Positions 36,741 through 64,000 of a stretch of 64,000 nt of DNA are shown here, piece by piece. The notes beneath the pieces were generated by a model. That model was not told the origin of the DNA. It was given only the letters and a program-made list of their open reading frames with translations, and did no database searches. Position 1 is the stretch's first letter. Every line of letters starts with the position of its first letter. A program made the position numbers and the translations under genes. The DNA comes from Armatimonadota bacterium (lineage in GTDB: Bacteria > Armatimonadota > HRBIN16). The stretch lies in assembly GCA_026003195.1 (NCBI GenBank), contig BPGU01000005.1:129851-193850 (forward strand). The letters run 5' to 3'.

Positions 36741-36936
36741 CCCCGCTATCTCTGAATACCAGTGTCCCAATCCAAATTGTAAGCAAGGTAAGGATAGAAA
36801 CAGGTACTTATACATGCCCAATTTGCCGTTTGAGAGGATAGAATATGTACAGATTGACCAGTTTGGCAATGAGATAAGCTCCCGTGTGGTATATCGATGC
36901 AGATACTGTGGGACGGAGTTCACGGTGCAGAGGTAG
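36733..36936 (+). CDS. zinc-ribbon protein (67 aa)
   Basis: CPNPNC...CRYC four-Cys arrangement. Confidence 0.45.
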   Translation: MNSPAISEYQCPNPNCKQGKDRNRYLYMPNLPFERIEYVQIDQFGNEISSRVVYRCRYCGTEFTVQR

Positions 36937-48022: not shown

Positions 48023-48064
48023 TTGTTGCGCCATCTGATTGTTGCGCCATCTGATTGTCCACCG
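48020..48064 (+). repeat. 16-bp direct repeat x ~2.7 (cgccatctgattgttg) overlapping the stop of paralogue 1
   Basis: Read directly from the sequence. Confidence 0.7.
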
Positions 48065-48253
48065 TGTGTACTGGTAAGCACGGTGGATACGGATGTACAT
48101 ATTCTCCGAACAGGACCTCAACCGATCCTGGCAGGCGTTTAACGAGCTCTTCCAGCAAGACGTTGTACCCCGCATCAAGGCGAGCATCATGGGGCACTAC
48201 ATGCAGCATAAGACGCCCTATGATGCGTTCCGATACTCGCCCGCCGTCTGGTA

Positions 48254-49777: not shown

Positions 49778-51425
49778 GTTCATCCAGAACCTGCTCAAAC
49801 GCGCCGACCGGTTCCAGAGCCCTGCACAGGAGGTAATAGCCGACAGTCCCGCTCAGGAGATTCTTGAGCAGGATGTTCTTGCTACTGAGCAGGAGGTTCT
49901 TGCCGATAGCCCGGCACAGCAGGCGCTGGGCACGAGCTATGTACGGAGCTTACTGGCCGGTAACGCATTCCCCATCTACACGCAGGAGCATCTCAGGGAC
50001 TTTGAACAGCGATTCCTGTCCGCATGGAGCGATATCCAGAGCCCGGTGCGCATTCAGGAAGCGCTGGACAGGCTTCCGATGGAGTTGCTGGCTGCCACCA
50101 ACACCATCTGGGAGCCGGACGCATCCATGAGCACCGCCTATCGGGAAGGCGAGTGGAAGGTGAAGCGACCGCCCATAGGATTAAGATTGTATCAGGAAGC
50201 TTCAACCGAAGTGGACCGGATACTGGGCTATGAGAATAAGGTCAATCTGTACAGCTCGTTCCTGTCCGGTCCCTCTATGCGCGGACTGGACCCGCTTCAA
50301 CCGGACAGGACGGTTGAACCGTCAGGGCTGTTGAAGGAGACGATGCCCGCTACCAGACTGGTGTATCTGGATATGATGAACTCACCGTTTATAAGGGAGT
50401 ATATGGATGAGTACGAACGGGTCAGTCCGGAGCTCAAGCGGGTGATACAGGGCGTGCAGGACGTGGAGGTGGTGAACCGGGTGACGCCGTTCACATACCT
50501 GCACGAGTACACGCACGGCGTGATGTTCCCGCTATCCACGATAACCTACAGCAACCTGCAACGCCACCTGAGCGGCGAGTTAGGGATGACGGATATCGTC
50601 ACCAGATCGTATATGAACTACGCCATGATTCAGGAGGCGGTCGCCGATGCCATCGGAGCCGCACTGTCCGGCGACCTGGAAGGCGCATTGACCATGCGAT
50701 ATAGCGCCGAGATGGCAGTGCACGCCGGTGACGATGTGAAGCCCAGATACGGCGACCCTATCCGTCTGGAGGTAATAGACCCGGCACTGATAGAGGATAC
50801 CGAGAACAGTCCGCTCTGGCAGATGGTAAGGCAAGCCGCAAGCGATATCGAGCAGAGACGACCGAACAAGTTTATCGATGAACCGAACGTCATGAGGTAT
50901 TCCCTGGAACGCCGAGACCTGAGGGCTTTCACAACCGCCATGCAGAGTCTGGAACATATCACCAGCATGGTATACGATAAACTGATAAGCGCCGCGGAAT
51001 CCGGTAGTCTGGATAGACAACTCCGTGAGACCATCATGGGACAGGCTTCCAGAATCTGGATCTATCCCTACTTCATCGGTAAAGCCAGACCGGACCTCAT
51101 CGGTAAGGAGATAAACATCCTGCCCGAATCGATTGAGGTGGCAGAGACCGGTGAGAAGCTGAACCTTGCGGAGATACTGCCGGATATCGCACCGTTAGGA
51201 TTAATAGACGAATCCGTTGTGCATCCGGAACACCTGCGTCGTTCCTTCAAGCTGATCGAGTTATACGACCGTGCCAGGGAAAGACTGAGGGCGGAACACG
51301 CCATGCAGCAGGCTTCGGAAGCGGAGGTAGTGCACCACAGGAACTACGAGACCGCACCGCCTCCGGATACAGGAGAAGCGGTGATAGAGCGCTGGCGGGA
51401 ATGGATCAGGAGCATAGCACCTTGA
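49770..51425 (+). CDS. HExxH zinc-metallopeptidase-like protein, tandem paralogue 3 (551 aa)
   Basis: HEYTH. PRYGDP. IGKARPDLIGKEINILPES. Confidence 0.65.
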   Translation: MSKFIQNLLKRADRFQSPAQEVIADSPAQEILEQDVLATEQEVLADSPAQQALGTSYVRSLLAGNAFPIYTQEHLRDFEQRFLSAWSDIQSPVRIQEALDRLPMELLAATNTIWEPDASMSTAYREGEWKVKRPPIGLRLYQEASTEVDRILGYENKVNLYSSFLSGPSMRGLDPLQPDRTVEPSGLLKETMPATRLVYLDMMNSPFIREYMDEYERVSPELKRVIQGVQDVEVVNRVTPFTYLHEYTHGVMFPLSTITYSNLQRHLSGELGMTDIVTRSYMNYAMIQEAVADAIGAALSGDLEGALTMRYSAEMAVHAGDDVKPRYGDPIRLEVIDPALIEDTENSPLWQMVRQAASDIEQRRPNKFIDEPNVMRYSLERRDLRAFTTAMQSLEHITSMVYDKLISAAESGSLDRQLRETIMGQASRIWIYPYFIGKARPDLIGKEINILPESIEVAETGEKLNLAEILPDIAPLGLIDESVVHPEHLRRSFKLIELYDRARERLRAEHAMQQASEAEVVHHRNYETAPPPDTGEAVIERWREWIRSIAP

Positions 51426-51741
51426 TAAGGTCTACACGTTCGGAATAGTCCTCCGGATCCGTCTGTCGGTACAACTTCATCAGCTTCTCCGCCAGCTCCG
51501 GTAACCTGCCGATACTGGGCATCAATGGATGCTTCAATCCTTCGGCGATCTCGCCACCGGCAAGCCGCCAGGCGAGTATCTCCTCAGGTGTGCCTTCCAC
51601 AAGCACCAGATGCGGCATGGCGCCCACATCCAGCACGAAGTTGCCCATGTCCATGTTGCCAATTTGTAAATGCAGGGCGATCGCCTTCTCCGCCAACTGC
51701 GCCGTGGCGTAACTGCCGTCCTTCTTGTCCAGAAGCTTCAT
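51406..51741 (-). CDS. hypothetical protein (111 aa), downstream of the mini-array
   Basis: ATG at 51741. The longer ORF-track form would run into the CRISPR repeats. Confidence 0.4.
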   Translation of the reverse strand: MKLLDKKDGSYATAQLAEKAIALHLQIGNMDMGNFVLDVGAMPHLVLVEGTPEEILAWRLAGGEIAEGLKHPLMPSIGRLPELAEKLMKLYRQTDPEDYSERVDLIKVLCS

Positions 51742-51778
51742 GATATGTCCCTCCGTTGCGCCAGTTTCTATCCTGCTC

Positions 51779-52020
51779 ATTTCTATCCTACTCAGGTATG
51801 TACCGAACTCAGCACGATGCCAGAGTGTATGCATACGGTATCATCAGTTTCTATCCTACTCAGGTATGTACCGAACAGCCTATGGAGGCTGCACAGCTCG
51901 CCAGACAGTTCGCATACAGATCGTTTGCGAACCGTGCGCTCTGCGCCGTGTTGATCGCTATCGCCATATACAATATCACTCCAGTGCACAGTTTCTATCC
52001 CACTTAGGTATGTGCCCAAC
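51779..52020 (-). CRISPR. mini-array: 3 variant repeats (51779-51808, 51847-51876, 51991-52020) with a 38-nt and a 114-nt spacer
   Basis: Repeats atttctatcctactcaggtatgtaccgaac, gtttctatcctactcaggtatgtaccgaac and gtttctatcccacttaggtatgtgcccaac. The last one overlaps the final 5 codons of the RNA ligase gene. Confidence 0.6.
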
Positions 52021-53080
52021 CTGAGTTCTCCATCTCACGTACCACGATCTTCCTTATGGACCGGTTGAACTTATCGCCGGTATAGGAGACCGTCCAGCGC
52101 CATGGCGGTGGGATGTCCAGCACACGGGCTCTGCCCAGCCCGGCATAACGCTGAGCCTGTTCCGTTACCTGCCGTTCCAGACTCTCTATCCGTGCAATCA
52201 GCTCTTGCACATGAGGCAGATACACCAGGAACTCCTCCACCTCGGCGACGGTCGCCCTTAACGCTTCCAGTCCGCCCTCCAGATACGTCCTCAGCATCCG
52301 GTTCGTGGTCATACCACGAACGCTTGCCAGTCGCTTCAGATACTCCGGCGACTTCAACTTGACGAGCAGGTTACCGTAACCGTGAGTATACTGCACCACA
52401 ACGCCTTCCCAGTCCGCATGTTCCGCCATCTCCACGAGCTGCACAGCCTCGTCAATGCTATACACGGGATACTGCTGTGGTAGTCTGAGTGGAGGCTCTA
52501 AGTGACTGTAGAACTCTACCGCCGGTATCAACTCCAGCGTGCTGAGGTCTCTGAGATAGAGTATTACCAGCGCAGGCTGCGCCGGTGGAGTGCACATGCC
52601 GGGTTGCCACACCTCGTTGTGTAACAACTCGGCAACCATCGTGTAGCCTTCAGGAAGCTGTATGCATCCACCGGCGAGCTGGCTGGCGATGACGGCAGCT
52701 CTTGTCCAGATGCCGTGTCGTGAAGCGAACACGAGTTCACCTTCATGATGGAATACCTGTATCATCACACCGTCCGCCTTCTCACAGACGCAACGCACGG
52801 TCTTGTCCGCAAGATGAGCCGGCGACGTCTCATCATGCTCGTTCAAGTTGAAGAACTTGACAAGCGGTAGCGACACCAGATTGTTCTCCGAATCGATGAC
52901 CAGCCCACGACAGACTCTGAGCCATGGCGTCCACATACCACGATAGCTGGCTTTATCGGTATAGTTCAGCAAGGTGAGGTTGCCATGTGTACGCACATTC
53001 AGTATCGTGGGATCATAATCGCCAGACCGGACGATGTGGATGGCCTCATCTATCGCCCTGCGGATCTCCCGTACGGTCAT
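52004..53080 (-). CDS. RNA ligase, T4 Rnl1 family
   Basis: VCRGLVID...LVKFFNLNEHDE... mirrors T4 Rnl1 ECRGIMFE...MEKFFNLNENP. Motif I KADG with no Arg at +5. EGVVVQ (motif IV) and LVKLK (motif V). ATG 53080 with AGGAGG upstream. Confidence 0.7.
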   Translation of the reverse strand: MTVREIRRAIDEAIHIVRSGDYDPTILNVRTHGNLTLLNYTDKASYRGMWTPWLRVCRGLVIDSENNLVSLPLVKFFNLNEHDETSPAHLADKTVRCVCEKADGVMIQVFHHEGELVFASRHGIWTRAAVIASQLAGGCIQLPEGYTMVAELLHNEVWQPGMCTPPAQPALVILYLRDLSTLELIPAVEFYSHLEPPLRLPQQYPVYSIDEAVQLVEMAEHADWEGVVVQYTHGYGNLLVKLKSPEYLKRLASVRGMTTNRMLRTYLEGGLEALRATVAEVEEFLVYLPHVQELIARIESLERQVTEQAQRYAGLGRARVLDIPPPWRWTVSYTGDKFNRSIRKIVVREMENSGWAHT

Positions 53081-53091
53081 GAACGTGCCTC

Positions 53092-53544
53092 CTAACCGTT
53101 TGGTGGGGCTCTGTGCTCGTTCAACCAGATGCATGCTCTGGTTACACCATCGCCGAACAGATCTTCAGAGTAGATAACCTTATCGGAGTGATACCATAGC
53201 CACGGATGGTACAGGTTCTGGTATCCTGTCACCAGCACGGTGGTCTTGCCCCACAGGCGGGCATAGAGCAACTCCATGCTGGTGCCGATACTTGCCCGTG
53301 CCATGATGGCGATGATGGCATCCGACTGTTTGAGAAGGCTGAGGTCCGACTGCACCAGCTGCTTGCAGGCTTCCCTGAAGTTCATCTGTTCGAGCAGTCT
53401 TGGCCAGATCTCCGGGTTCATGAAGTCCATCGGCGAGATGGGTTCCAGCCCATGAGACCGAACAAGCTCCGCTACCTGCTTGAACATCTGCTGGGGATCA
53501 TAGTCTCTGTGGTTGGAGATGGGCATTCCGATATAGACACGCAT
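53092..53544 (-). CDS. nucleoside 2-deoxyribosyltransferase-like protein
   Basis: MRVYIGMPI N-terminus and SIGTSMELLYARLWGKTTVLV resemble the NDT/DNPH1 family (catalytic Glu in the G-T-S-x-E-L context). Confidence 0.5.
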   Translation of the reverse strand: MRVYIGMPISNHRDYDPQQMFKQVAELVRSHGLEPISPMDFMNPEIWPRLLEQMNFREACKQLVQSDLSLLKQSDAIIAIMARASIGTSMELLYARLWGKTTVLVTGYQNLYHPWLWYHSDKVIYSEDLFGDGVTRACIWLNEHRAPPNG

Positions 53545-54108
53545 TCAGGCCACCTCCGGATTCAGCTCGCCGTGTATGAGGTTCTTGAACCACTCATCGT
53601 CGATCTTGTGGAGATGCCTGCTGTTGTCTTTGAGAAACGCCCAGGCGCCTCCTTCGCGGAATACGTAGAGCTCATACCCGCCGACAGGTATCTTGAAGAA
53701 GTAGTCTACGCTCCTGTCCAGCGTGTTGGGGACCAGCTCGTATTCCAGACTCTCCAGAACCTGGATGATTCGTTGCAGTTGCTGTTCCGTAATGGTGAGC
53801 GTGCCGTATCGGTATATACGCCCGGAGATTTGCCGGATGATATCCTGCACGGCATCGATGGGAACAGAATACCATTTCCCACGATAGCAGAAGGAGTAGC
53901 GTTCTACTGCGACGACAGAGACCTCCTTATCCTTGATGATTTGCAGATATTTGCACCAGTCCAGTTCCTCCACCGTCTGCTCGATCTGGTAGTCTCTGAC
54001 GACGAGACCGCCGACTGTTTCCTTGTCCAACATGAACAGATCGTGTTTGTCCAGTAGTAGAGTCACAGTATCGCTGTCGGATTGGCACCGTATGGCGTAG
54101 AACTTCAT
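53545..54108 (-). CDS. hypothetical protein (187 aa)
   Basis: ORF with AGGAG SD. Confidence 0.55.
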   Translation of the reverse strand: MKFYAIRCQSDSDTVTLLLDKHDLFMLDKETVGGLVVRDYQIEQTVEELDWCKYLQIIKDKEVSVVAVERYSFCYRGKWYSVPIDAVQDIIRQISGRIYRYGTLTITEQQLQRIIQVLESLEYELVPNTLDRSVDYFFKIPVGGYELYVFREGGAWAFLKDNSRHLHKIDDEWFKNLIHGELNPEVA

Positions 54109-54149: not shown

Positions 54150-54179
54150 GTTTCTATCCTACTAAGGTATGTACCTAAC
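54150..54179 (-). CRISPR. solitary CRISPR repeat unit (gtttctatcctactaaggtatgtacctaac)
   Basis: 28/30 identity to the array repeat. Sits in a 90-nt intergenic space. Confidence 0.75.
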
Positions 54180-54198
54180 CACTATAACTCTTGGCAGG

Positions 54199-55251
54199 TT
54201 ATATGGGGCAATTGTTGAGGTCTATATCGTATTCCAGCAGCATCACCTTATCGCCCATCATCAGGGACACCTGTGGCGTCAATCTGGGCAGCTGGTTCAT
54301 GAGAGAGGCGATATGCATGAGGTTACCACGTGCCAGCGGTCGCACGAAGCAGCTGTTCTTTATGGGATGCGGGAACAGCTCGCTGACGGCGCTTCTCATT
54401 GTCATGCCGGGCTCCACAATGATGTATCGCTGGTAGACACTAATCACGTCATGGGTTTGTACCAGCACGTTGTTGATACGTACCAGGACGACGTTGAAGC
54501 GGATATCGTATCCAGATTTCAGGGCGAACCGAAGGGCGGCGAGCCGCACCATGTAATGAAGGAGATCTCTGGCAAGATGCTCTATACTCCTGTAACCGTA
54601 TGTGTCGTTGATCTCGCTTCTGCAGTTCAGGAGTTGCTCCTGTCTCACGAGCATGATGCGGTAGTGTCCTGCCGCTTCAGACTGCACATAGTTCGTGGAT
54701 AACAGATTGGCAAGAACCAATACGTCCTGGAACAGCTTATCCAGCGGTAAAGACTGCACAAAGTCCAGGAACGAAGCGGTGTACCGGATATGCTGTTCGG
54801 AAGCCTGTTCGCATGCCCTTATCCACTCCTGCCGTAGATAGTCAAAGAATGCGGATGATTCGTTGCACATCTGGCTTATCATCCTGCCCTGTCGTTCCTG
54901 GAGGGAATCATCGTTCTCAAGATGCTTCATCATCTGCATCAGCCAGTTGCGGGACGCTATTCTGGCACCGGGCAGGTTGTGACTGTGTTCGTTGATAGTT
55001 AGTTCCACGTCTCCTATGCGTAGCAGGATGGTGCCTGGAGTATCACTGTCTGCTGGCTGATAACGTAGAGACACACCATGGGGCAGCGTCCATCCGTAGG
55101 ACTCTGCAGGATAGACTATCCGCACGGGCCAGACGTCGGGGGGTCGAATGAACGGCTCCATGAAGAGCTCTCTGGTCTTGTTACGAACGAAGCTGATGAA
55201 CTTGAGTGGGGTGTTGACCATGCCCGGTTCTCCTCCATACACTAAGATCAT
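54199..55251 (-). CDS. unknown protein (350 aa), paralogue of the ORF at 63036..>64000
   Basis: Shared block FFDYLRQEWIRACEQASEQHIRYTASFLDFVQSL vs FFRRFRREWKDACEQALWEDATRYTAPFIKFISSL. Confidence 0.6.
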   Translation of the reverse strand: MILVYGGEPGMVNTPLKFISFVRNKTRELFMEPFIRPPDVWPVRIVYPAESYGWTLPHGVSLRYQPADSDTPGTILLRIGDVELTINEHSHNLPGARIASRNWLMQMMKHLENDDSLQERQGRMISQMCNESSAFFDYLRQEWIRACEQASEQHIRYTASFLDFVQSLPLDKLFQDVLVLANLLSTNYVQSEAAGHYRIMLVRQEQLLNCRSEINDTYGYRSIEHLARDLLHYMVRLAALRFALKSGYDIRFNVVLVRINNVLVQTHDVISVYQRYIIVEPGMTMRSAVSELFPHPIKNSCFVRPLARGNLMHIASLMNQLPRLTPQVSLMMGDKVMLLEYDIDLNNCPI

Positions 55252-55265
55252 AGTCTGTTCTGTAA

Positions 55266-55295
55266 GTTTCTATCCTACTTAGGTATGTATCTAAC
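55266..55295 (-). CRISPR. solitary CRISPR repeat unit (gtttctatcctacttaggtatgtatctaac) between cas3 and the 350-aa gene
   Basis: Lies 4 nt after the cas3 stop and 14 nt before the next start codon. Confidence 0.75.
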
Positions 55296-55299
55296 GTCA

Positions 55300-57366
55300 C
55301 TATACAATCAACGCTGAATTGCCTTCCCCCTTCTCCGGCTTGACTAGTCCGTACTCCTCCGAGTAGTCTGCATCAATAGTATACGAACCGCTTCCTATGT
55401 ACGATATCCTGTTCCCATACCACTGCTTCCATTCGAATGGAACAGGAACCAGTAGCTCCCTAGCTTGCAAATACCTGCCCTCGTCTGTCAGCTGCATGAA
55501 CTCATCGAGATAGCAAGCAGGAACGACGTCTATCGTACCTGCTATCTTTTGCTCGATGTCTTCCATTGTAGTGGTTATGTATGCTTTCATGCTCCTCACG
55601 TGATTCGAGAACACATCAAGCTTGCGTAGATATCTACGGTCCTGTAGCATGTTCTGATAGACATGGTTGACCCAATCCCGCTGGACGTGCCAGCTGATAG
55701 CCTGTTCCGATATTGCATTCAGCGTGTTCTTGAGGTACTCTTCATCGTAGACGTACTCCAGCTTGCCAGCATCATACGTCGTCGCTACATGCACATCGAC
55801 TATGCCGTGCTCACCGCGACGGTTGACTCTACCGAACCGCTGAAGCAGATCGTCAACAGGAGCTACTTCGGTATAGCATGTGTCATAGCTGATGTCCAGT
55901 GATACCTCCACAACTTGAGTGGCGATGAGTAGCTGAGGTTTGTGGTGCAGGATGTCGTTCTCTATCCGTGACCTATCCCTAATCATGAAGCGGGAGTGCA
56001 ATAGCCGTCTGGATGGGATATCGGAGAACGTCTGGTACATGGACACAGCTTGATCTACTCTGTTACAGACCACCAGCACGGACTTGCCCAGTTCCAGATC
56101 TCGGCGGATGAGAGGAATACAATCCTCCAGCGTCTGGTCCAAACGCTTCAGGTAGTGCCTGTCCGGCAACGCCACATCGGCAACAATGTGCTTCACGTTA
56201 TGTAGACGGCGTTTCAACTCGTCTACCAGTGGTTCAGGCAACGTGGCTGACATCACCATTACCTTGCCACCAAGCTGCTGAATCACATCAATCAATACCG
56301 TAATCATTGCCAGCGTACTGCTGTCGTATGCATGTATCTCATCGAACACGAAGCAGGCATCCTTCATCTGTACGATGCCTACTTCGAACCGCTTGATGCC
56401 GATCAGGTAATTCAATAGCTGATACGGTGTGGTTATCTTGACCGGCTTGTGCACCAGCCTGTTCAGGTTCGCATCCTGCTTAGCTTGCTGTGATGCCAAA
56501 TCCTCGTTACCTTCATCCATATACCTCCGGAATGCATATAGCATGTCACGCCCATGCACAACACCGACTTCATCCCCCTGGAACACACCTCGTTGAACAA
56601 ACCGCTCCTGCATTGCTTCAATAGACGATTGGTAAGGTAACACATAGAACAGCCGTCGGTTGCCGTTCCGGTTACGGTCATACCAGAGAAGGGCTGCCTC
56701 GGTCTTACCACTGCCGGTTGGTGCCTCCAGAATGAGGTTTCCTTCTGTCTCAGCTGCTTGTTGCTGGAAGCCGCGCGGTGAGATGTTGAGGTTGACCTTC
56801 TTGACCTGAACGGGCTGTTTCAGCCCGGCACTGGCGGCATGGTCTGCTGCGATCAGATAACCACGTAGCAGAACGTGATCCGTGTAGATACCTTCGTCTA
56901 TACCGTAGCGGAGGTACTTAGTATGCTCCACTAGCTTACGCACAATATCCTCTGGAACCGGTACAGGAAGCTCCCCGGCCTTATCAAGCACTATCCCTAT
57001 ATTGCGGAGGTGTGCAGAGATACTTCCCTCTGGCTCGCGGTTGTGTGGATGTTCTATATCTCGATGATGCGTAAGGATGGCTCCGAATACTGCAGGATCA
57101 AACTCCTCCTGCATGAGGTATATCAACGCTGATAGTACTTCGTGTCGGTAGTGCCACTTGAAACCACTATCCTCAAGCTGCCTTTGGAATCCGCTTGCTT
57201 GCTTACCGAGATCATGATAGACCGCCGCCAGATGAGCTCTCTCATCATCCGTTAAGTGCTTGATGTAGTTCAATACATCCAGCGTATGCTGCTTGAGTGT
57301 TGTGCCATCGGACTTAGCGAGGTAGCAATCAAGAGAATCGAACAGGGAAGAGTACCTTGCCTTCAT
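55300..57366 (-). CDS. cas3: Cas3 (HD nuclease fused to SF2 helicase)
   Basis: HD motifs HTLDV...AAVYHDLGK...FQ...IAADHAAS. Helicase motif I APTGSGKTEAAL, motif II DEIH, motif III SATLP. Confidence 0.85.
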   Translation of the reverse strand: MKARYSSLFDSLDCYLAKSDGTTLKQHTLDVLNYIKHLTDDERAHLAAVYHDLGKQASGFQRQLEDSGFKWHYRHEVLSALIYLMQEEFDPAVFGAILTHHRDIEHPHNREPEGSISAHLRNIGIVLDKAGELPVPVPEDIVRKLVEHTKYLRYGIDEGIYTDHVLLRGYLIAADHAASAGLKQPVQVKKVNLNISPRGFQQQAAETEGNLILEAPTGSGKTEAALLWYDRNRNGNRRLFYVLPYQSSIEAMQERFVQRGVFQGDEVGVVHGRDMLYAFRRYMDEGNEDLASQQAKQDANLNRLVHKPVKITTPYQLLNYLIGIKRFEVGIVQMKDACFVFDEIHAYDSSTLAMITVLIDVIQQLGGKVMVMSATLPEPLVDELKRRLHNVKHIVADVALPDRHYLKRLDQTLEDCIPLIRRDLELGKSVLVVCNRVDQAVSMYQTFSDIPSRRLLHSRFMIRDRSRIENDILHHKPQLLIATQVVEVSLDISYDTCYTEVAPVDDLLQRFGRVNRRGEHGIVDVHVATTYDAGKLEYVYDEEYLKNTLNAISEQAISWHVQRDWVNHVYQNMLQDRRYLRKLDVFSNHVRSMKAYITTTMEDIEQKIAGTIDVVPACYLDEFMQLTDEGRYLQARELLVPVPFEWKQWYGNRISYIGSGSYTIDADYSEEYGLVKPEKGEGNSALIV

Positions 57367-57955
57367 GCACTAAACCTCTCGCTTGCTGAACAGGTTGTTG
57401 CTTGCAATCGATAACAGTGAAGCTGCGTATGCTTGTTGGGTGACGCGGCTCGGTTCTGGTGAAGTCTATCGGTAGTGCGTAGATGGCGCCGAATAGTTCC
57501 AGCCGCTTCGCTTCGTCGCTATCTACTAATACACCTGATACCTCACCTTCTCCGTCGATGAGTTCTACAGTCTCTACGAGTTCGACAGTAGCGAGATCCT
57601 GGCTTCTGCCAAGTGTGAGGATACCATGGGGATTCTTCAATGCATACTCAAACTCTGGATCGATGTACAGATGCAGTGTTGTATTGTATAGAAACTCCCT
57701 GCTAACGATGTCTGTGCCCTTCTCGATTGCTTTGGTCTTGTAGATCTTCTCCACATCAATTCCACGCTCAGCGTATTCGAAACGATAGGCAAGGAACGAT
57801 ATCTCATCTGTGTCAACCCAGCGCCCCGCTGCGTTTCTGAGTAAGCCGATGATGGTGGAAGGTGGTGGCACAGACAACGTGGGCTGAGGTTTCATGAAGT
57901 AGTGTACTCTGAAGCTTGCCGTTTCAGATCTGATAACAGCATGTACAACTTGCAT
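57329..57955 (-). CDS. cas5: Cas5
   Basis: Hallmark N-terminal PTLSVPPPSTIIGLLRNAAG. GGAGG SD. Start abuts the degenerate end of the array. Confidence 0.7.
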   Translation of the reverse strand: MQVVHAVIRSETASFRVHYFMKPQPTLSVPPPSTIIGLLRNAAGRWVDTDEISFLAYRFEYAERGIDVEKIYKTKAIEKGTDIVSREFLYNTTLHLYIDPEFEYALKNPHGILTLGRSQDLATVELVETVELIDGEGEVSGVLVDSDEAKRLELFGAIYALPIDFTRTEPRHPTSIRSFTVIDCKQQPVQQARGLVHEGKVLFPVRFS

Positions 57956-57969
57956 TGCTGTAGAACCTC

Positions 57970-59416
57970 CGTTTCTATCGTTTCTATTCTAGCTTCCATC
58001 CTACTCACTTCTATCCTACTAAGGTATGTACCCAACTGGCTTAGGTATGTACCGAACTCAGCTCGTAGTCCTGAACCTCAAAGGTCACACCTTGAGTTTC
58101 TATCCTACTTATTTCTATCCTACTTAGGTATGTACCTGACCATTGCTGTATCTGGCGATGGCTGTCGGGGACTGGATTCGTTTCTATCCTACTTAGGTAT
58201 GTACCTGACTGATCAATCTGTAGACAACAGTGACTTCAACTTCACTGGTTTCTATCCTACTTAGGTATGTACCTGACGTGAGCACTCATGCCTGTTTCTA
58301 CCTTAACCTGGAGCTGTTTCTATCCTACTTAGGTATGTAACTGACTTGAAATCGCAATGTCACGATGATAACGATGCCTCCAGGTTTCTATCCTACTTAG
58401 GTATGTACCTGACCGCATTGGGCTGGTTAAGAACAGTAGCACGTTCTCCGTTTCTATCCTACTTAGGTATGTACCTGACTACCCGAACGTGCCTGCATGG
58501 TTGAGAGTGCCAGCGTTTCTATCCTACTTAGGTATGTACCTGACTGGCAAGGGTGCTGTTCGTTGGTGCTTCCCCCAACGACGTTTCTATCCTACTTAGG
58601 TATGTACCTGACACGATGAAGTAGACTTCGTCCCCTGCCCGCTCTGCAAGTTTCTATCCTACTTAGGTATGTACCTGACAACATCAGCGTGCGCCCAGTG
58701 CGCCGCGAGTTCGTGCGTTTCTATCCTACTTAGGTATGTACCTGACCCTTCATGATGACAAACAACTAACGAAACCAAAAGGGTTTCTATCCTACTTAGG
58801 TATGTACCTGACCGCGCCGGAAGAAGAGACGATAGTGTTTCGTGATGCAGTTTCTATCCTACTTAGGTATGTACCTGACACCTCCGAAGCCAGACTACTT
58901 CCGTGAGGTATCGGCGTTTCTATCCTACTTAGGTATGTACCTGACTGGCACGACGCTGACCAGGGTGAAGGGACAGTCGTTCGTTTCTATCCTACTTAGG
59001 TATGTACCTGACCTTTGCTTCACCCGTTAGTACGTCAACAATCCTGTACCGCGTTTCTATCCTACTTAGGTATGTACCTGACATAGCACGCGTCCTCAAG
59101 ACCACACCGGAATGGCTCGCGTTTCTATCCTACTTAGGTATGTACCTGACGAGTGTTTACGCTTCCTGTATGACCGCTTCCCGAATGGTTTCTATCCTAC
59201 TTAGGTATGTACCTGACCCGTACGGGAAAGAATACATACCTCTCTACGAAGATTGTTTCTATCCTACTTAGGTATGTACCTGACTGGTGTTCTCTGCCGA
59301 ACGCGCCATGATATAGCCGTGTTTCTATCCTACTTAGGTATGTACCTGACCACTCCTTTGTCAGACTTCACGTTTTCCGCGAATAGGTTTCTATCCTACT
59401 TAGGTATGTACCTGAC
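57970..59416 (-). CRISPR. CRISPR array: 20 full 30-nt repeats (58110-59416) plus a degenerate trailer (57970-58109), 19 spacers of 35-40 nt
   Basis: Consensus on plus strand GTTTCTATCCTACTTAGGTATGTACCTGAC. Transcribed sense GTCAGGTACATACCTAAGTAGGATAGAAAC (AUAGAAAC 5' tag). Degenerate repeats lie at the cas5-proximal (trailer) end. Confidence 0.9.
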
Positions 59417-59610
59417 CAAACCGACATGTCACTTGACTGATTAGTCATCAATCAAGTGACGCTAAACGTGTGTTTGAGTATGAGATAACTAATCACTGTG
59501 TTGTCTAAACCACAAACACAGTGCTAAATGAGTCGTCTACCTCCTTCGTGGAGATACCAAACCGGAGGTAGACGACTCTTGATGACAGCAGTCTACTCTT
59601 CACTAAGTTC
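59417..59610 (-). promoter_or_regulatory. putative CRISPR leader (AT-richer, two inverted repeats)
   Basis: Lies between the newest repeat and a solitary repeat. Palindromes gtcacttgactgattagtcatcaatcaagtgac and gagtcgtctacctcc...ggaggtagacgactc. Confidence 0.5.
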
Positions 59611-59640
59611 ATTTCTATCCTACTTAGGTATGTACCAAAC
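59611..59640 (-). CRISPR. solitary repeat unit (atttctatcctacttaggtatgtaccaaac) between the cas7 stop and the leader
   Basis: Lies 14 nt after the cas7 stop. Confidence 0.7.
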
Positions 59641-59654
59641 AGAGAGACAGCAGC

Positions 59655-60767
59655 CTACTCTTCATCGATCTCCCGCTGATCTGCCAGCTCCTGCTGTTCG
59701 TTCTGCTCCTTGCCCTGCTTCCTGCCCTTAGCCTTCTTAGCAGCCGCCGCGGCTTCTATGGACTGACGTAGAGATTCAGCATCCACTGCACGCTCTTCCT
59801 GCTGCAAGTCATCGTAGAACTTGTCTACTAAGTTTGCAACAGCAGTAACTAGTTCCTCCATCGTGCTGTGCCAGCGTACGAACTCTAGCTGTTTGACAGC
59901 CTGCTCGTTGATAACAACACCAGGCACAGCACTGATGTGAAGCTCTTCCAGCAGGTTGCGATCACGCAGGTACTTCAGTCGCTCTATGTCGATAATGATG
60001 CTATCGTCGCGCTTCTTGAAGATGCCCTGCAGTATTGCGTTGCCATGCTCGACCGCTGTCAGCACCAGCACCTGAGGTGTGACGTCTGTGTTGTTCCTGG
60101 CGAGATTCGCACCGCCCTCCAGCAACGTCAGCGCCTTCAGCAGATCCCTCACTCTGCGCTTGCGCTCGTCCCGACTCAATGCGAACTTATCATGCGTAAC
60201 CTGCACTAACTTGTTCGCATGATTCCGTAACGTCTCAGCGTCCAGCTCACCGCCAGCACGTCCCTCGACGAGCGGAGCCTCGAACACGCCGACACGCTCC
60301 AGATCCAGCGAGAAGTTCGCAGCCATCCACGCAGAGTATACTTCACGCTGAAATACAGCGTTGTCGCCGGCAACCGACAGGACACCGAAGTCAGACACTG
60401 GTCGAGCATCGTGGATAGCAGACAACGCAGAACAGTGAAGTGGCGACGTGCGCTTGATAGCGTTGTTGCCCTTCTCAGCACGCATGTAACCGAACAGGTC
60501 GTCATCCTCGTGCTCGACTGGATCACATGCAGCGTAGCCATGCGCACCGGCACCCTCCGCCTTCACCATCTCATAAGTGGTCGGATTCCAGCCGAAGTGG
60601 TTGTACAGCACATTACGCCACCAGTGACGCCATGCTTGACCGGATGCGTAAGGGCGATTGCCCACCTTCTTGACAAGGGAGATCTGTCCGATATCCGCTT
60701 GCTCAGTCTTATTGCAGTTCAATGCAGCAACATCTGCATAGATAGCAAATGTTCCGGTAAGTTTCAT
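59655..60767 (-). CDS. cas7: Cas7 (Csa2/Csh2-like backbone subunit)
   Basis: RPYASGQAWRHWWR corresponds to the VPVISGEALAHAYQ signature of Csa2-family Cas7. ATGA overlap with the upstream gene. Confidence 0.65.
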   Translation of the reverse strand: MKLTGTFAIYADVAALNCNKTEQADIGQISLVKKVGNRPYASGQAWRHWWRNVLYNHFGWNPTTYEMVKAEGAGAHGYAACDPVEHEDDDLFGYMRAEKGNNAIKRTSPLHCSALSAIHDARPVSDFGVLSVAGDNAVFQREVYSAWMAANFSLDLERVGVFEAPLVEGRAGGELDAETLRNHANKLVQVTHDKFALSRDERKRRVRDLLKALTLLEGGANLARNNTDVTPQVLVLTAVEHGNAILQGIFKKRDDSIIIDIERLKYLRDRNLLEELHISAVPGVVINEQAVKQLEFVRWHSTMEELVTAVANLVDKFYDDLQQEERAVDAESLRQSIEAAAAAKKAKGRKQGKEQNEQQELADQREIDEE

Positions 60768-62404
60768 TCCTCTACCTCCTGATCTTCAGTGTAGGTATCT
60801 TCCTCCTCTTCATCCTGGTCCTCGTCATCTACTTGAATGCCAAGCTCGCGTAGCTTGCTGGCGATGAGGATCTCCAGCACCTGCGCAGCTGCCCTGGCTC
60901 TCATGCGATTCTGCTTCTCTGTGTTAGCATCCAGCATGAAGTCTATAGGACACAGCAGAACGAAATCCTGCCAGCTGAGCTTCCCGATACGAGCGAGATA
61001 TGCATACAGCGATCGAATCGCCTTCATGTCGCCAGACCATGCAGCACTGCGTAGCCTCTTATGTAGCGTAGCAGCACGGTCCATCGATACGAAGCTATCA
61101 GCGATACGCTCCATCAGCAAGATTGCCTGATCCTGAGACTGTACCTGTTGCTGTACATTGTCGTCGAACTGTAAGCCAGTGTGTCGACAACGAACGTAGT
61201 CGTATACAGCAACAGAGAGGTATTGAAGCACTCTCGTCAGGTCATGATACAGGAACAGGGGAGCGAGCAGAGACGCATCCACCTTACCGTCTCTTGCCAG
61301 CCTCGTCAAGAACCGTATAGTCTTGTCCCTATCCCTGCTGTTCACCAGATTCAGCATCTCACGCTTCGCCGATTCCAGCACATCGTCGCTGTTTGATACA
61401 GACTGGTAGATATGATCGCCAGCAGCGATGGCAACCTGTGTCAACGCTGAAATCAATCCATTGTCCATTCCACGTACCTCCGTCAGGTATCTGCGTACTG
61501 CATACCATCTATCGCCCAGTTCAGGCTGGTACTTGCCCTGTAAGTAGAGGTCAAGCTGCGTGTCTCTACCACGCTGCTTGCACCGATCCTTCAATGTGTT
61601 GATGAAGTGGAAACTTGACAGCCCCATGTGATACTCTACGGTGTCAAGCTTCGTTATGTGGTCTATTACACGGTTCGGTATCACCATGTAGCTGATTTCA
61701 CCTTCACCCCGCTGCGAGCTGTTGATCAGCCATATCGTTACAGACTCGCCACGATAGGAGTTCTGTGCTACGATATCCTTGACAATATCCGCTCTCGCCT
61801 GCCCAGGAGTATCCATCCTGAACTTAGCTTGCTCTCCATTGGTGGAAGTTGCTACCTTCTGGTAGTTCTCTCTGTAGATCCTGTCTACTATCGCCTTGCC
61901 AACCAGTTCGTTCTGTATATGCGGTATCACCATATGCACGTTGTTGATGTGGTCGGCAGCGATGAAGGCGGAGAGTGCAGCCAGCTCACATAACCCGCAG
62001 ACTGGCATACCGTCCATCAGTGACGGATAGAAGTTGAACTCGCCATGCAGGAACGGTAGCACATGACGCTTCGCCGATACAATAGCCTCTTCTGGAACAC
62101 GCTTGCCACAGATATGACAGATGGAACTTCCAGAGGTCAGAGCCAGCTTGGCACGATGGATAAGCCGGTCAATGGCATCATTCCATTCTGGTTGTCCATA
62201 GGCGCCTTGAGTGAACACGCAGTTGGGAGTGAAGAAGCGCAACTTCTTACGGAATAGCTCGAAGCTCTCCTGGGCAAGCATATCCCTCAGCGGGCCTGCC
62301 ATATTGTCGATAGCCTGATCATCTATCTGGTTGCTACGGGAGATCTTCAGTATAGCGGTGAGCCCGTAGTCTACGACGAAGTGACCTGTCCACGGTACAG
62401 CCAT
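60764..62404 (-). CDS. Cas8-like large subunit (546 aa) with a four-Cys zinc finger and an acidic C-terminal tail
   Basis: Position immediately upstream of cas7. CHICGK...CGLCEL. C-terminal DEDQDEEEEDTYTEDQEVEE. Family assignment (Cas8a vs Cas8b) is uncertain. Confidence 0.5.
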   Translation of the reverse strand: MAVPWTGHFVVDYGLTAILKISRSNQIDDQAIDNMAGPLRDMLAQESFELFRKKLRFFTPNCVFTQGAYGQPEWNDAIDRLIHRAKLALTSGSSICHICGKRVPEEAIVSAKRHVLPFLHGEFNFYPSLMDGMPVCGLCELAALSAFIAADHINNVHMVIPHIQNELVGKAIVDRIYRENYQKVATSTNGEQAKFRMDTPGQARADIVKDIVAQNSYRGESVTIWLINSSQRGEGEISYMVIPNRVIDHITKLDTVEYHMGLSSFHFINTLKDRCKQRGRDTQLDLYLQGKYQPELGDRWYAVRRYLTEVRGMDNGLISALTQVAIAAGDHIYQSVSNSDDVLESAKREMLNLVNSRDRDKTIRFLTRLARDGKVDASLLAPLFLYHDLTRVLQYLSVAVYDYVRCRHTGLQFDDNVQQQVQSQDQAILLMERIADSFVSMDRAATLHKRLRSAAWSGDMKAIRSLYAYLARIGKLSWQDFVLLCPIDFMLDANTEKQNRMRARAAAQVLEILIASKLRELGIQVDDEDQDEEEEDTYTEDQEVEE

Positions 62405-62490
62405 GAGGTTCCTCCTGTTATTTCTGTGCTGCTCTGTTATGTTCCTGATGCTCCAGAGGACGAACCTTTGAGCTCGCCCTCTCGAGTCAT

Positions 62491-62688
62491 CTACACCTGG
62501 CTCACGCAGTAATCCTCCTCTATATCATCTGCCATCTCAGCGGTAACGTTGGTCAGCTCCCAGCGGGTACCGCACCGTGGGCACTCGCCGTCGTAGGTGT
62601 TCTGATACTGACCACCTACCAGCTCCAGCTGAACCTGAGAACCGCAGGGGCAGGTAATGATGATGTACTGGGGATTGGTGTTGTACAT
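62491..62688 (-). CDS. zinc-ribbon protein (65 aa)
   Basis: CPCGS...CPRCG. AAGGAG SD. Confidence 0.5.
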   Translation of the reverse strand: MYNTNPQYIIITCPCGSQVQLELVGGQYQNTYDGECPRCGTRWELTNVTAEMADDIEEDYCVSQV

Positions 62689-62705
62689 GGCTTCTTAACT
62701 CCTTC

Positions 62706-62767
62706 TTGTTCCCATCCTGCTTGTTCCCATCCTGCTTGTTTCTATCCTGCTCTGGTATGTTGCTAAC
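62706..62767 (-). CRISPR. degenerate solitary repeat (62738-62767, gtttctatcctgctctggtatgttgctaac) embedded in a 15-bp x3 tandem repeat (cttgttcccatcctg)
   Basis: Read directly. The conserved GTTTCTATCC end is retained. Confidence 0.5.
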
Positions 62768-63035: not shown

Positions 63036-64000
63036 CTAACATGATAGCACTTCCAAGAGTGCCTCAACACCTTTGTCACCACGTACGCTATACTCCAGCA
63101 CAAGCGCTTGCATGTCCTGACCGGTCTCCACCTTCTGCCAGGTAACCTCATGCACAATGGGCTGGGTGTTCAGTATGCGGTCTATTAATGTAGCCAGATA
63201 GGGCAGACTGCCCTTGCAAAGCCTCTCCAGAGCGTCGTCCAATCTGAAGGTTCTAATAAGCCTGCGTGCTTCCGCTTCCAGATTGGCATCTGGAGCCAGA
63301 ACCCTGTACGAGCTTGCAGAGACGTCGTAATATGCATGGATCAGTAAGTTGTCTATGATGACCAGATTCCTGGCGTCCTTCAGATCCATGCCTCTGCGTA
63401 GATACTGCTCCATGGATGCAAGCGATATCAGATCTGCAGCCAAACGACGACCATACAGGAGCAGATCGTCGTACCTATCGTATAGCGTATTCCTGAACTC
63501 ACTTTTGGCTATCCGGGATTGATAGTCCAGCGCATCTCTCAGAGTCTCGATAACGTGTCTGGAGTAATATGTATCCCTCATGCCGTACATGAGCTCTGCC
63601 CTTACTACAGCGTTGGTGAACCGATCCTTGATAGACAGGGAGCTGATGAACTTGATGAAAGGAGCCGTGTATCTCGTAGCGTCCTCCCAAAGAGCCTGTT
63701 CACAGGCATCTTTCCATTCCCGACGGAACCGCCTGAAGAACGTGCAGGCATCCCTGTGAGCCCGTTCCACTTCGTTACCGTACAGGTAGTGGTACATTCG
63801 AGAGCCGTCCGGGTTACTCAGAATGGACTCCCTGAGCATCCCTTCTCCTGCGCGGATGAAGGAATCGCTGAAGGCTGCCCCATCATCGTATTCAGATACA
63901 GCAACTTCCATATCGCCTGCGCGTACAACAAACGTACCCTGCTCATCGATATGCCTGCCCGGTTTGTACAGGAGAGTGGTGCCAGGAGTGAGTTCTACCT
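63036..64000 (-). CDS. unknown protein, paralogue of 54199..55251; 5'-truncated, the ORF stays open to the window end
   Basis: The frame is open upstream of Met63911 through position 64000. Shared EW(K/I)(D/R)ACEQA...RYTA.F..F..SL block with the 350-aa protein. Confidence 0.55.
   Translation of the reverse strand, partial: VELTPGTTLLYKPGRHIDEQGTFVVRAGDMEVAVSEYDDGAAFSDSFIRAGEGMLRESILSNPDGSRMYHYLYGNEVERAHRDACTFFRRFRREWKDACEQALWEDATRYTAPFIKFISSLSIKDRFTNAVVRAELMYGMRDTYYSRHVIETLRDALDYQSRIAKSEFRNTLYDRYDDLLLYGRRLAADLISLASMEQYLRRGMDLKDARNLVIIDNLLIHAYYDVSASSYRVLAPDANLEAEARRLIRTFRLDDALERLCKGSLPYLATLIDRILNTQPIVHEVTWQKVETGQDMQALVLEYSVRGDKGVEALLEVLSC

Follow-up and report, generated by a model that had tools for sequence, protein, structure and literature searches.

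This raises the question what copies of a CRISPR repeat do outside the array, in the gaps between the genes of a cas operon. The case at hand is a type I-B CRISPR-Cas operon carried by a large (~200-kb) hot-spring phage that was binned with an Armatimonadota MAG; the 64,000-nt stretch analysed here is referred to as the window. The operon comprises 11 genes, is promoter-poor and holds its array inside, between cas7b and cas5b and co-directional with the cas genes (Table 1). According to PADLOC and Pfam, the type I-B interference module (Cas8b, Cas7b, Cas5b and Cas3) is complete in the window. The reading frames of cas8b and cas7b overlap with zero gap (block 59655-62404), as do those of cas5b and cas3 (block 55300-57955). 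Scans of about 30 proteins of the window, of 10 kb upstream in relatives and of the relative L011 did not reveal a recognisable cas6, and the adaptation genes cas1, cas2 and cas4 were found neither among the scanned window proteins nor in the same regions of the relatives. That leaves Cas5b, a Cas6 of the host or a distant phage Cas6 as candidates for the processing nuclease. The phage also encodes sigma-70-family proteins and a type III-A module, making the locus a composite one (I-B plus III), and close relatives of its CRISPR components occur in the host lineage (Csm5 at 88% identity, located on a 1.34-Mb contig of that MAG). The spacers of the main array gave zero matches in the window or the phage database.

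Table 1. Repeat units, genes and other features of the phage I-B locus, in window coordinates (listed in the direction of transcription)
Feature	Position	Strand	Size	Remarks
Solitary unit, GTTAGCAACATACCAGAGCAGGATAGAAAC	62738-62767	-		head of the Zn-ribbon/cas8b/cas7b block
Two tandem half-units, AAGCAGGATGGGAAC twice	62708-62737	-	15 nt each	copies of repeat positions 16-30
Zn-ribbon gene		-	65 aa	head of the Zn-ribbon/cas8b/cas7b block
Degenerate unit, ATCAGGAACATAACAGAGCAGCACAGAAAT	62420-62449	-		9 differences; ends 15 nt before the cas8b start codon
cas8b	60764-62404	-	546 aa	PADLOC Cas8b, 5e-10
cas7b	59655-60767	-	370 aa	PADLOC Cas7b, 1.7e-41; Pfam DevR, 3.8e-15
Solitary unit, GTTTGG...GAAAT	59611-59640	-		14 nt past the cas7b stop codon
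Hairpin, then A+T-rich array leader	59417-59583	-	16 bp (hairpin)	hairpin at about 59531-59579
Main CRISPR array	58111-59416	-	20 repeats	19 spacers of 35-40 nt
Array trailer	57966-58110	-		runs into the cas5b Shine-Dalgarno
Trailer: half-unit	58096-58110	-
Trailer: 5' partial unit	58040-58057	-
Trailer: degenerate unit	58007-58036	-
Trailer: half-units/tag copies	57966-58006	-
cas5b	57329-57955	-	208 aa	PADLOC Cas5b, 5.7e-41
cas3, HD and helicase domains	55300-57366	-	688 aa	PADLOC Cas3b, 4e-171
Solitary unit 'a', GTTAGATAC...	55266-55295	-		4 nt past the cas3 stop codon
Cassette gene	54199-55221	-	340 aa	absent in N, truncated in J
Solitary unit 'b', GTTAGG...CCTTAG...	54150-54179	-		between the 340-aa and 187-aa genes
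Cassette gene without assigned function	53545-54108	-	187 aa	absent in N
Protospacer of the N mini-array spacer	54045-54082	-		5' CCA at 54083-54085; inside the 187-aa gene
Cassette gene, nucleoside 2-deoxyribosyltransferase	53092-53544	-	150 aa	absent in N
Rnl1-type RNA ligase gene	52004-53080	-
Solitary unit 'c', GTTGGGCAC...	51991-52020	-
Window-only insert	51779-51990	-		114-nt stretch, then one-spacer mini-array
Window mini-array: repeat	51847-51876	-
Window mini-array: spacer	51809-51846	-	38 nt
Window mini-array: repeat	51779-51808	-
Half-unit, GAGCAGGATAGAAAC	51764-51778	-		22 nt upstream of the 111-aa gene start codon
111-aa gene	51406-51741	-	111 aa

Outside the 20-repeat array we identified nine full-length repeat units at seven sites, plus several half-units of 14-15 nt. 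The array repeat is 30 nt long (transcribed form GTCAGGTACATACCTAAGTAGGATAGAAAC), from which seven of the units differ at 2-5 positions, one at 6 and one at 9. A preliminary description of this DNA had reported copies at five sites (59611-59640, 55266-55295, 54150-54179, 62738-62767 and the triple 51779-51808, 51847-51876, 51991-52020); all five were recovered at exactly these positions, with 2-6 differences from the array repeat. It had missed the degenerate unit at 62420-62449, a unit and partial units within 57966-58065, and half-units (repeat positions 16/17-30) at 62708-62737, 58096-58110 and 51764-51778. A search with a 26-nt core, allowing up to 3 mismatches, returned 27 matches compared with 0.00 expected in shuffles, and outside the locus the window contains a single 11-mer match to the repeat, inside coding sequence.

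The placement of the units is not random. All of them lie on the same strand as the array, that is, the strand transcribed for genes and array. Although the non-coding share of the region is only 7.9%, a unit is present in every gap of at least 74 nt, and zero units occur in gaps of up to 11 nt between genes. Units follow the preceding stop codon at a distance of 0-19 nt, which is tighter than their spacing to the next start codon. At two sites unit and gene even overlap: positions 3-5 (TAG) of the unit at 62738-62767 are the stop codon of an upstream 77-aa gene, and unit 'c' encodes the C-terminal residues and stop codon (TAA, repeat positions 15-17) of the RNA ligase. In sister phages the former site reads GTCAGGAAC..., and the upstream gene extends to a TAG at repeat positions 24-26 (84 aa). 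The tandem half-units next to it stand directly upstream of the Shine-Dalgarno of the Zn-ribbon gene.

Variation among the units is concentrated in repeat positions 3-7. Relative to the array repeat, substitutions affect 12/42 of positions 1-7, but only 7/138 of positions 8-30 (Fisher 9e-5; 0.03 if position 3 is removed); position 16 accounts for four changes and A20G for one more. Seven units show hardly any change in positions 8-30, which hold the putative cleavage site together with the ATAGAAAC tag; in the two most diverged units (62449 and 62767) changes adjoin the putative cleavage site. The 5'-end difference given in the preliminary description is correct, with GTCAGG in the array versus GTTNGG, GTTAGA or GTTAGC in solitary units. 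A 3' end common to all copies, as also claimed there, applies to most units (...GAAAC), but not to those starting at 59611 and 51779 (...GAAAT).

The idea that the units are processing sites fits this anatomy: they lie on the transcribed strand and retain positions 8-30 with the ATAGAAAC tag, each gene downstream of a unit has its own GGAGG-type Shine-Dalgarno, and no sigma-70-like promoter was detected on the gene strand in any gap by a sigma-70 consensus scan (phage-specific promoters are beyond such a scan). Probably the units undergo the same cleavage as the repeats of the array, but this is an inference, as no Cas6 gene was found. Processing leaves the half-units unexplained. On balance, we lean towards the view that the units represent a dispersed array, the phage's own I-B repeat having spread from the array into each sizeable gap of the co-directional operon. 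The region from the leader to the 111-aa gene would then be read as long transcripts, and a repeat endonuclease would cut each unit 8 nt before its 3' end, as with array repeats, since the units keep repeat positions 8-30. A 38-nt insert between two units would be released as a crRNA, and a gene between two units would yield an mRNA that begins with the ATAGAAAC tag and carries its own ribosome-binding site. The 30-nt identities may furthermore provide crossover points during co-infection by related phages.

Three haplotypes can be compared, namely the window, N (L001) and J (L173). In sister phages of more than 98% identity the units occupy the same sites, and most departures from the window fall at unit ends; the same unit variants are found at the same sites in independent assemblies (NCBI, JGI, Logan), and Cas5b and Cas3 are 100% identical in the sister phages. 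The preliminary description had suggested looking for the units in related genomes; their positions are indeed conserved in the sister phages, so the units are not random decay remnants. In N, 55265-53106 of the window (2.2 kb) is swapped for a 38-nt spacer and one consensus repeat, whereas in J 54708-54204 (505 nt) is swapped for exactly one consensus repeat. The stretch 51987-51793 is missing from both N and J, and both of its ends fall inside units. Unit 'a' is, in N, the first repeat of a one-spacer mini-array, and unit 'b' is kept in J (L173 8713-8742) and deleted in N. From cas3 to the 111-aa gene, haplotype differences thus mostly start or stop at the end of a unit, and cassettes are present, absent or replaced by a repeat, depending on the haplotype. 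There are two exceptions: the right end of the 2.2-kb cassette (53105) is without a unit in the window, and J has a 360-nt deletion, fusing the 187-aa and 150-aa genes, without a unit at either end. As short-read assemblies can mis-join at repeats, the D5-primase cassette of L173 and the tail of L010 are doubtful. Judged by these sequences, a best-supported role of the units, and one not foreseen in the preliminary description, is that of junctions in gene-cassette rearrangements among sister phages. The 340-aa cassette gene and the PIN-like gene at 63036-63911 are paralogs (26% identity, E 4e-24).

A second role, equally unforeseen and likewise best supported, is the seeding of one-spacer mini-arrays against sister phages. 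The spacer of the N mini-array (L001 16666-16763) matches J at 38/38 and the window at 36/38 positions, with a CCA flank in both; the two window mismatches are both synonymous, and N itself is without the gene that its spacer targets. In the window mini-array both repeats are of the same variant (GTTCGG...CCTGAG), and the 114-nt stretch ahead of it contains a possible 35-aa ORF (51860-51967). Its spacer has a diverged match of 24/38 (seed 11/12, 5' CCA) in the window ORF 38919-39398, compared with 0 in 300 shuffles; a perfect target is not on record. Of the two perfect protospacers, one is flanked on its 5' side by CCA and the other by CGG.

Mini-CRISPR arrays carried by viruses serve in conflicts with related viruses (Medvedeva et al. 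2019, PMC6858448; review PMC11656645), and the N spacer follows this known virus-versus-virus pattern (PMC6858448). As there, one-spacer arrays occupy gaps between viral genes, the gene hit by the spacer belongs to a close relative and lies near the array locus, the carrier (N) is deleted at the orthologous site and the sibling (window) has point mutations there. In contrast to those viruses, this phage has its own complete I-B interference module including Cas3, a 20-repeat array and a type III-A module; its mini-arrays are leaderless and lie inside the cas operon, and on the 3' side of most units there is a gene rather than a spacer. Both solitary repeats and mini-arrays have been described before in viruses and cas loci, mostly as a single element with a single role. 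In the present I-B system, carried by a phage, a repeat stands at every sizeable gene gap of the operon that also holds the array, and natural haplotypes tie these repeats to gene-cassette turnover, a newly seeded mini-array and sister-phage targeting. With three co-existing alleles at one locus, it is a tractable case of phage-against-phage CRISPR warfare.

One may go further, to a reading that we regard as less likely than not, and take the CRISPR repeat as a general, integron-like operon punctuation and cassette boundary, with captured promoterless genes being expressed from the array/cas transcript and freed by the crRNA-processing nuclease. Each mRNA would then begin with a crRNA 5' tag 15-51 nt ahead of its start codon. 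Cascade assembly would be able to reach this tag, and in this way translation of the locus could become tied to the amount of Cas protein. Engineered Csy4/Cas6 cleavage sites between cistrons reportedly insulate synthetic operons. The layout is alike in that a repeat stands between cistrons that each have their own ribosome-binding site and that cleavage would yield separate mRNAs, but those sites are synthetic and their cleavage is said to have been demonstrated, whereas the arrangement seen here is natural and its cleavage putative. If processing were confirmed, the locus would be a natural counterpart of such insulators, and CRISPR repeats could organise gene expression and genome plasticity beyond immunity. 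Conserved boundary sequences also mediate cassette shuffling at the PeSL elements of T4-type phages and the attC sites of integrons. By analogy only, short conserved sequences here surround promoterless cassettes that differ between close relatives; the boundary element, however, is a CRISPR repeat, and a dedicated recombinase is not evident.

Such density of units is rare. Of 50 related I-B loci with arrays, five contain a single solitary unit and one contains three; in none is every gap occupied. About 10% of the control I-B loci have a solitary unit ahead of cas8. In the distant relative L006 (Cas7 39% identical) a degenerate unit and a half-unit stand ahead of cas8, and in L011 a half-unit ahead of cas3. 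That repeat-like elements recur ahead of cas8 or cas3 in relatives (Cas7 identity 38-39%) argues against the units being neutral scars, i.e. leftovers of array fragmentation, slippage and illegitimate recombination in a phage region prone to recombine, tolerated between genes without a selected role in processing or competition. The avoidance of positions 8-30 by substitutions, the retention of old GTTNGG variants at the same sites in independent assemblies and at least one derived mini-array with a perfect, CCA-flanked sister-phage target speak against it as well. We therefore consider neutral scars unlikely, although they would account for several details. Half-units vary in number between 98%-identical genomes, as slippage would give, and those at 62708-62737 vary in sequence as well; the units 62449 and 62767 are decaying; and the two copies of an 18-nt direct duplication (59647-59664 and 59584-59601) lie on either side of unit 59640. 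This unit is present in L002, L003 and L004, but N has lost it together with hairpin and leader, with no obvious harm. The array trailer is identical in L001, L173 and L174.

Rather improbable, in our view, is a function as CreA/CreR-type regulators, in which a unit and its downstream sequence form a guide and Cascade, bound to a partial match without cutting, represses cas or cargo genes. Standalone repeats, which like mini-arrays can act as regulators of cas loci (CreA/CreTA, CreR, crRNA-like RNAs), are enriched in I-B loci and near cas8, and most of all in composite I-B plus III loci (Shmakov et al. 2023, bioRxiv 10.1101/2023.03.03.530964). The present units likewise occupy intergenic gaps of an I-B locus, one directly upstream of cas8 as in L006 and about a tenth of the control loci, and are conserved at the same sites in sister phages. 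In a variant of this reading, repeat plus half-unit would serve as guide with a 15-nt seed (repeat positions 16-30): the half-unit behind repeat 51808 is identical to positions 16-30 of unit 62767, where they follow CCA, and the one behind the final array repeat is identical to positions 16-30 of every repeat. Since CCT precedes these positions in each repeat, Cascade could occupy its own repeats and throttle the operon. However, when the seeds of all pseudo-spacers were scanned (12 nt, up to 1 mismatch), only the repeats themselves came up and no promoter or 5' region with a PAM-proximal partial match, so that the crRNA-like or CreA-like regulators considered in the preliminary description did not gain support. 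Most units are also without a second repeat or terminator that would delimit a small RNA, it is uncertain which PAM applies (CCA versus CGG), and the varying half-unit length (14-15 nt) would shift the would-be PAM. Moreover, nine units at seven sites mark gene boundaries throughout the operon, unlike the one mini-array of the known systems.

An anti-CRISPR role, also put forward in the preliminary description, is very improbable. RNA anti-CRISPRs (Racr) are solitary repeat units in phages, and candidates are described as located directly downstream of a promoter and unlinked to cas genes (Camara-Wilpert et al. 2023, PMC10651486). As decoys, such units could sequester the Cas6 and Cas7 proteins of a related I-B or III-A system in the host, and both the host's CRISPR components mentioned above and the similar repeats used by related I-B systems would suit them. 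The units here, though, sit inside the phage's own complete interference operon, the sigma-70 scan found no promoter directly upstream of them, and, because they match the phage's own array, decoys would also poison its own Cascade. Least credible of all is a phage-specific promoter or other transcription signal, e.g. for a phage sigma factor, that resembles the repeat by chance: most genes of the block are preceded by units and the phage has its own sigma-70-family proteins, but the same 30-mer recurs 20 times at regular intervals in the array, separated by spacers of 35-40 nt, ordinary bacterial cas8-cas7-cas5 loci contain homologous repeats, units hug stop rather than start codons, and the rest of the window has just the one 11-mer match.

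In L011 the array is located between cas5 and cas3, and a perfect promoter is found only before cas8. The hairpin is always positioned just ahead of the leader in L006, L007, L008 and L011, and its stem sequence is invariant in all four despite a Cas7 identity of only 38-42%.

All genes between 64.0 kb and 51.4 kb lie on the minus strand (see table), and PADLOC assigned the effector genes to type I-B. The phage is large, encoding a baseplate wedge protein, giant structural proteins, an intein-bearing ribonucleotide reductase and a sigma-70-family protein, and its Cas7 is 100% identical to KatS3mg023_3767, whose 202-kb contig was binned with a hot-spring Armatimonadota MAG. No cas6, cas1, cas2 or cas4 was recognised among the window proteins scanned, and no Rfam family matched within 51-64 kb. 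The 340-aa gene and the weakly PIN-like 291/364-aa gene are full-length paralogs (26% identity, E 4e-24). AlphaFold single-sequence models of the cassette proteins were not usable (pLDDT 36 for the 340-aa and 43 for the 187-aa protein). The small Zn-ribbon gene lies shortly 5' of cas8b, as it does in the distant relative L006, and its product may have an accessory or regulatory role in this I-B subfamily.

Table. Coordinates of the operon, its repeat units and features of related loci (W, window haplotype; N and J, sister-phage haplotypes; L-numbers, retrieved loci of relatives; numbers in brackets, operon order)
Feature	Locus	Coordinates	Strand
PIN-like gene (1)	window	63036-63911	minus
77-aa gene (2)	window		minus
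65-aa Zn-ribbon gene (3)	window	62491-62688	minus
Zn-ribbon gene	L006	45-236	
cas8b, cas7b (4-5)	window		minus
18-nt duplication around unit after cas7	window	59647-59664, 59584-59601	
Hairpin (6)	window	59531-59579	minus
Hairpin in relatives	L006	4421-4470	
Hairpin in relatives	L007	3648-3695	
Hairpin in relatives	L008	3688-3735	
Hairpin in relatives	L011	11841-11880	
Leader (6)	window		minus
20-repeat array (6), cas7-cas5 interval	window	58111-59416	minus
Array, cas5-cas3 interval	L011	11992-13624	
Main array of N	L001	12785-13880	
cas5b, cas3 (7-8)	window		minus
Unit a, after cas3	window	55266-55295	minus
340-aa gene (9)	window	54199-55221	minus
Unit b	window	54150-54179	minus
187-aa gene, 150-aa nucleoside deoxyribosyltransferase (10-11)	window		minus
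Rnl1-type RNA ligase, 111-aa gene (12-13)	window		minus
Unit c, RNA ligase end	window	51991-52020	minus
35-aa ORF	window	51860-51967	minus
First rearrangement	W	55265-53106	
Second rearrangement	W	54708-54204	
Third rearrangement	W	51987-51793	
Three tandem paralogous genes, 507-551 aa, upstream of the locus	window	46400-51425	
Sigma-70 region-2 protein, upstream of the locus	window	44008-44796	
Class II ribonucleotide reductase with intein, upstream of the locus	window	41286-44087	
ORF with diverged spacer counterpart	window	38919-39398	
11-mer match	window	36791-36801	plus
Primase cassette of J	L173	1-5400	
Type III-A module	L171	1-6422	
Type III-A module	L009	1-1407	
Array spacer	L002	13099-13134	
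Match of L002 spacer	L173	344-379	

Outside the array we found nine full-length copies of the 30-nt repeat at seven sites, all on the transcribed strand, where zero would be expected by chance, together with half-units (14-15 nt, repeat positions 16/17-30). The solitary repeats of the preliminary description are thus real at each site it listed, although several units and all half-units had been overlooked. For the eleven genes considered, with 7.9% of the region being non-coding, a unit is present in every intergenic gap of at least 74 nt and in none of the gaps of 11 nt or less. Units begin 0-19 nt after a stop codon and end 15-51 nt before the next start codon, each downstream gene having a GGAGG-type ribosome-binding site, and three upstream ORFs terminate within a unit in a common frame relative to the repeat. 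Constraint is seen in the 3' two-thirds of the units: when six independent well-kept units are compared with the array repeat, differences occur at 12 of 42 sites in positions 1-7 as opposed to 7 of 138 in positions 8-30 (Fisher 9e-5, or 0.03 without the shared position 3). The latter changes include four at position 16 and an A20G. Therefore, the part with the putative cleavage site and 8-nt tag is kept while the 5' end drifts. The contrast between GTCAGG in the array and GTTNGG-type 5' ends in the units was confirmed, whereas the exact repeat end is not kept by all of them, two ending in T instead of C. Since the repeats of relatives (GTTACA..., GTTTCGGG...) look similar to the GTTNGG form, the sequences suggest that the units predate the current array consensus.

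Some smaller features adjoin the units. An 18-nt direct duplication (GAAGAGTAGRCTGCTGTC, one mismatch) surrounds the unit after cas7; phage N has one copy and no unit at this site. Between unit c and the mini-array, the 114-nt insert contains a 35-aa ORF (MAIAINTAQSARF...) with GGAG 11 nt upstream; its stop falls within the following repeat and, relative to the repeat, has the frame in which the RNA ligase and an 84-aa sister-phage gene also stop. Outside the CRISPR locus, the 11-mer AGGATAGAAAC has its sole match inside a small Zn-ribbon ORF, probably by chance.

Apart from one close cluster (98% identity), a Cas8b search returned a single distant protein. Three haplotypes could be read at the locus, with 97.8-99.1% DNA identity in shared blocks: W, N (GCA_017880035.1, 218-kb contig; loci L001, L009 and L172) and J (L173, 91.8-kb contig, JGI 3300038964). 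The units are positionally conserved among these related genomes, a comparison suggested earlier as a check, with identical variants at identical sites in all three. Between cas3 and the 111-aa gene, the haplotypes differ by four rearrangements, and units or repeats form the junctions of three. In the first, a W segment with the 340-aa, 187-aa and 150-aa genes and unit b gives way in N to a 38-nt spacer and one consensus repeat; unit a forms the left border and the 3' end of that repeat the right one. In the second, J has exactly one consensus repeat in place of the 3' half of the 340-aa gene. The third, comprising the 114 nt and the mini-array, is missing from N and J, both ends lying within units; the fourth is a 360-nt in-frame deletion in J that fuses the 187-aa and 150-aa genes, with no repeat at the junction. 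Half-units vary in number and sequence among haplotypes, as expected from slippage.

The spacer of the N mini-array corresponds to a stretch of the 187-aa gene, matching J at 38 of 38 and W at 36 of 38 positions, both mismatches being synonymous; the 5' flank of the match is CCA in J and W, and N itself lacks the gene. An origin of this spacer as a deletion remnant of the 187-aa gene was rejected, because simple deletions in J or W could not give the order unit a, 38 nt, consensus repeat, and the spacer length and the CCA flank at the source contradict it as well. A match in siblings to a gene that the carrier lacks is the pattern reported from viral mini-arrays, whose spacers match sibling-virus genes near the array while the carrier is deleted or point-mutated at the site (PMC6858448). 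Units also act as seeds of mini-arrays. In the window mini-array, both repeats carry one set of private variants, suggesting that a single unit was duplicated. No perfect target of this mini-array's spacer is on record, and neither mini-array spacer matched IMG/VR. A diverged counterpart of the window spacer lies in a window ORF (24/38, seed 11/12, 5' CCA); none of 300 shuffles gave such a match, and the spacer when translated resembles the protein of this ORF at the matched site, which together suggest capture from a sibling's ortholog. The 26 concatenated spacers gave no blastn match in 50,697 phage records. An array spacer of L002 matches J at 36 of 36 positions beside a tyrosine-integrase fragment; its 5' flank is CGG rather than CCA, so the perfect matches differ in their putative PAM. 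If CCN is the PAM, a guide from the N consensus repeat adjoining the RNA ligase 5' UTR (L001 16764) could target W-type genomes, in which the same 40 nt (53104, minus strand) are preceded by CCC in place of a repeat end. In N, the main array shows irregular repeats and spacers that look low in complexity, which probably reflects noise in the consensus of a heterogeneous array in that assembly; these spacers were excluded from the analysis. In J, 16 nt separate a 3-repeat array from the downstream genes for a 1094-aa D5-type primase and a 127-aa protein, a partial repeat ending the cassette. This could be a mis-join at repeats in assembly or a chimera, or, by analogy with ICP1 and PLE, a satellite-like element that the phage targets.

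Array and genes are transcribed in one direction. The repeats of the array end in ATAGAAAC, the leader and hairpin lie on the cas7 side and a degenerate last repeat on the cas5 side. The order hairpin, leader, array recurs in relatives. The stem of the 16-bp hairpin (GAGTCGTCTACCTCC...GGAGGTAGACGACTC), immediately before the leader, is invariant and without covariation across systems whose Cas7 proteins are 38-42% identical; therefore, the sequence itself seems to be recognised, and the hairpin may function as a terminator, leader element or protein site.

Located downstream of the array and lacking a recognisable promoter, cas5, cas3 and the genes that follow probably owe their transcription to read-through from the leader or a cas promoter. 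A nuclease maturing the array would cut the units too, yielding mRNAs with a ATAGAAAC 5' end and a 22-nt repeat 3' end; we infer such processing from the arrangement of the locus. A conserved repeat hairpin was dropped as evidence, the possible 3-bp CCU/AGG mini-stem not being conserved in the L007 and L011 repeats. PADLOC and Pfam detected no Cas6 when applied to about 30 proteins from the window and about 20 from relatives; a RAMP protein upstream in relatives was rejected as Cas6, being Csm5 of a type III-A module. This module is complete in the sister phages (cas10, csm2-5) about 9 kb upstream of cas8b, past the window end. Locus L171 opens with a different repeat (TTACGAGCCTACCTATAAGGGATTGAAAC) 70 nt ahead of cas10, which is related to the I-B repeat (20/30 positions in a hand alignment). 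A Csm5 with 88% identity is encoded by the same Armatimonadota MAG, presumably that of the host, on a contig of 1.34 Mb. A Cas6 shared with the III-A system is plausible, though none was seen.

If the units were neutral scars with no selected role, half-unit polymorphism and decaying units would be accounted for, but constraint, conservation and targeting would be left unexplained. Regulation in the manner of the crRNA-like CreA/CreR, an earlier proposal, was not supported, as no pseudo-spacer seed matches any promoter. The only seed matches are those of half-units to the repeats themselves, beside CCT or CCA, which makes self-throttling via the repeats an intriguing but unsupported variant. 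RNA anti-CRISPRs (Racr), likewise proposed, are described as having their own promoter and no linkage to cas genes, and the units do not fit this description: they are linked to cas genes, and no sigma-70-like promoter was found on the gene strand of the gaps that hold them. A phage promoter motif that resembles the repeat is excluded, since the sequence sits in an array context and ordinary bacterial loci contain homologous repeats.

Viral mini-arrays, solitary repeats and standalone repeats in cas loci are all known kinds; what merits attention is the operon-wide dispersal, the placement at gene boundaries and the natural haplotypes with cassette turnover and sibling targeting. Exact scans with the repeat core gave no matches in IMG/VR, JGI metagenome contigs or GTDB genomes, nor did blastn with cas8-cas7 in the 50,697 phage records. 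A set of 50 related, array-containing I-B loci taken from metagenomes and genomes included five with a single solitary unit, typically about 2.5 kb 5' of cas7 and hence before cas8, and one with three; in none did each gap hold a unit. In the nearest subfamily (L006, L007, L008 and L011; Cas7 38-42% identical), the order is cas8-cas7-cas5-hairpin-leader-array. Neither in the window nor in L011, in the latter within 10 kb, are cas6 or adaptation genes (cas1, cas2, cas4) found near the array, which in both lies within the cas operon and is co-directional with it. Judged from this comparison of sequences, the in-operon array is a subfamily trait, and the dispersal of units is particular to this phage lineage. 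In L011, the only perfect promoter lies 5' of cas8, and cas3 comes after the array with a 15-nt half-unit ahead of it; immediately 5' of its cas8, L006 carries a degenerate unit and a half-unit.
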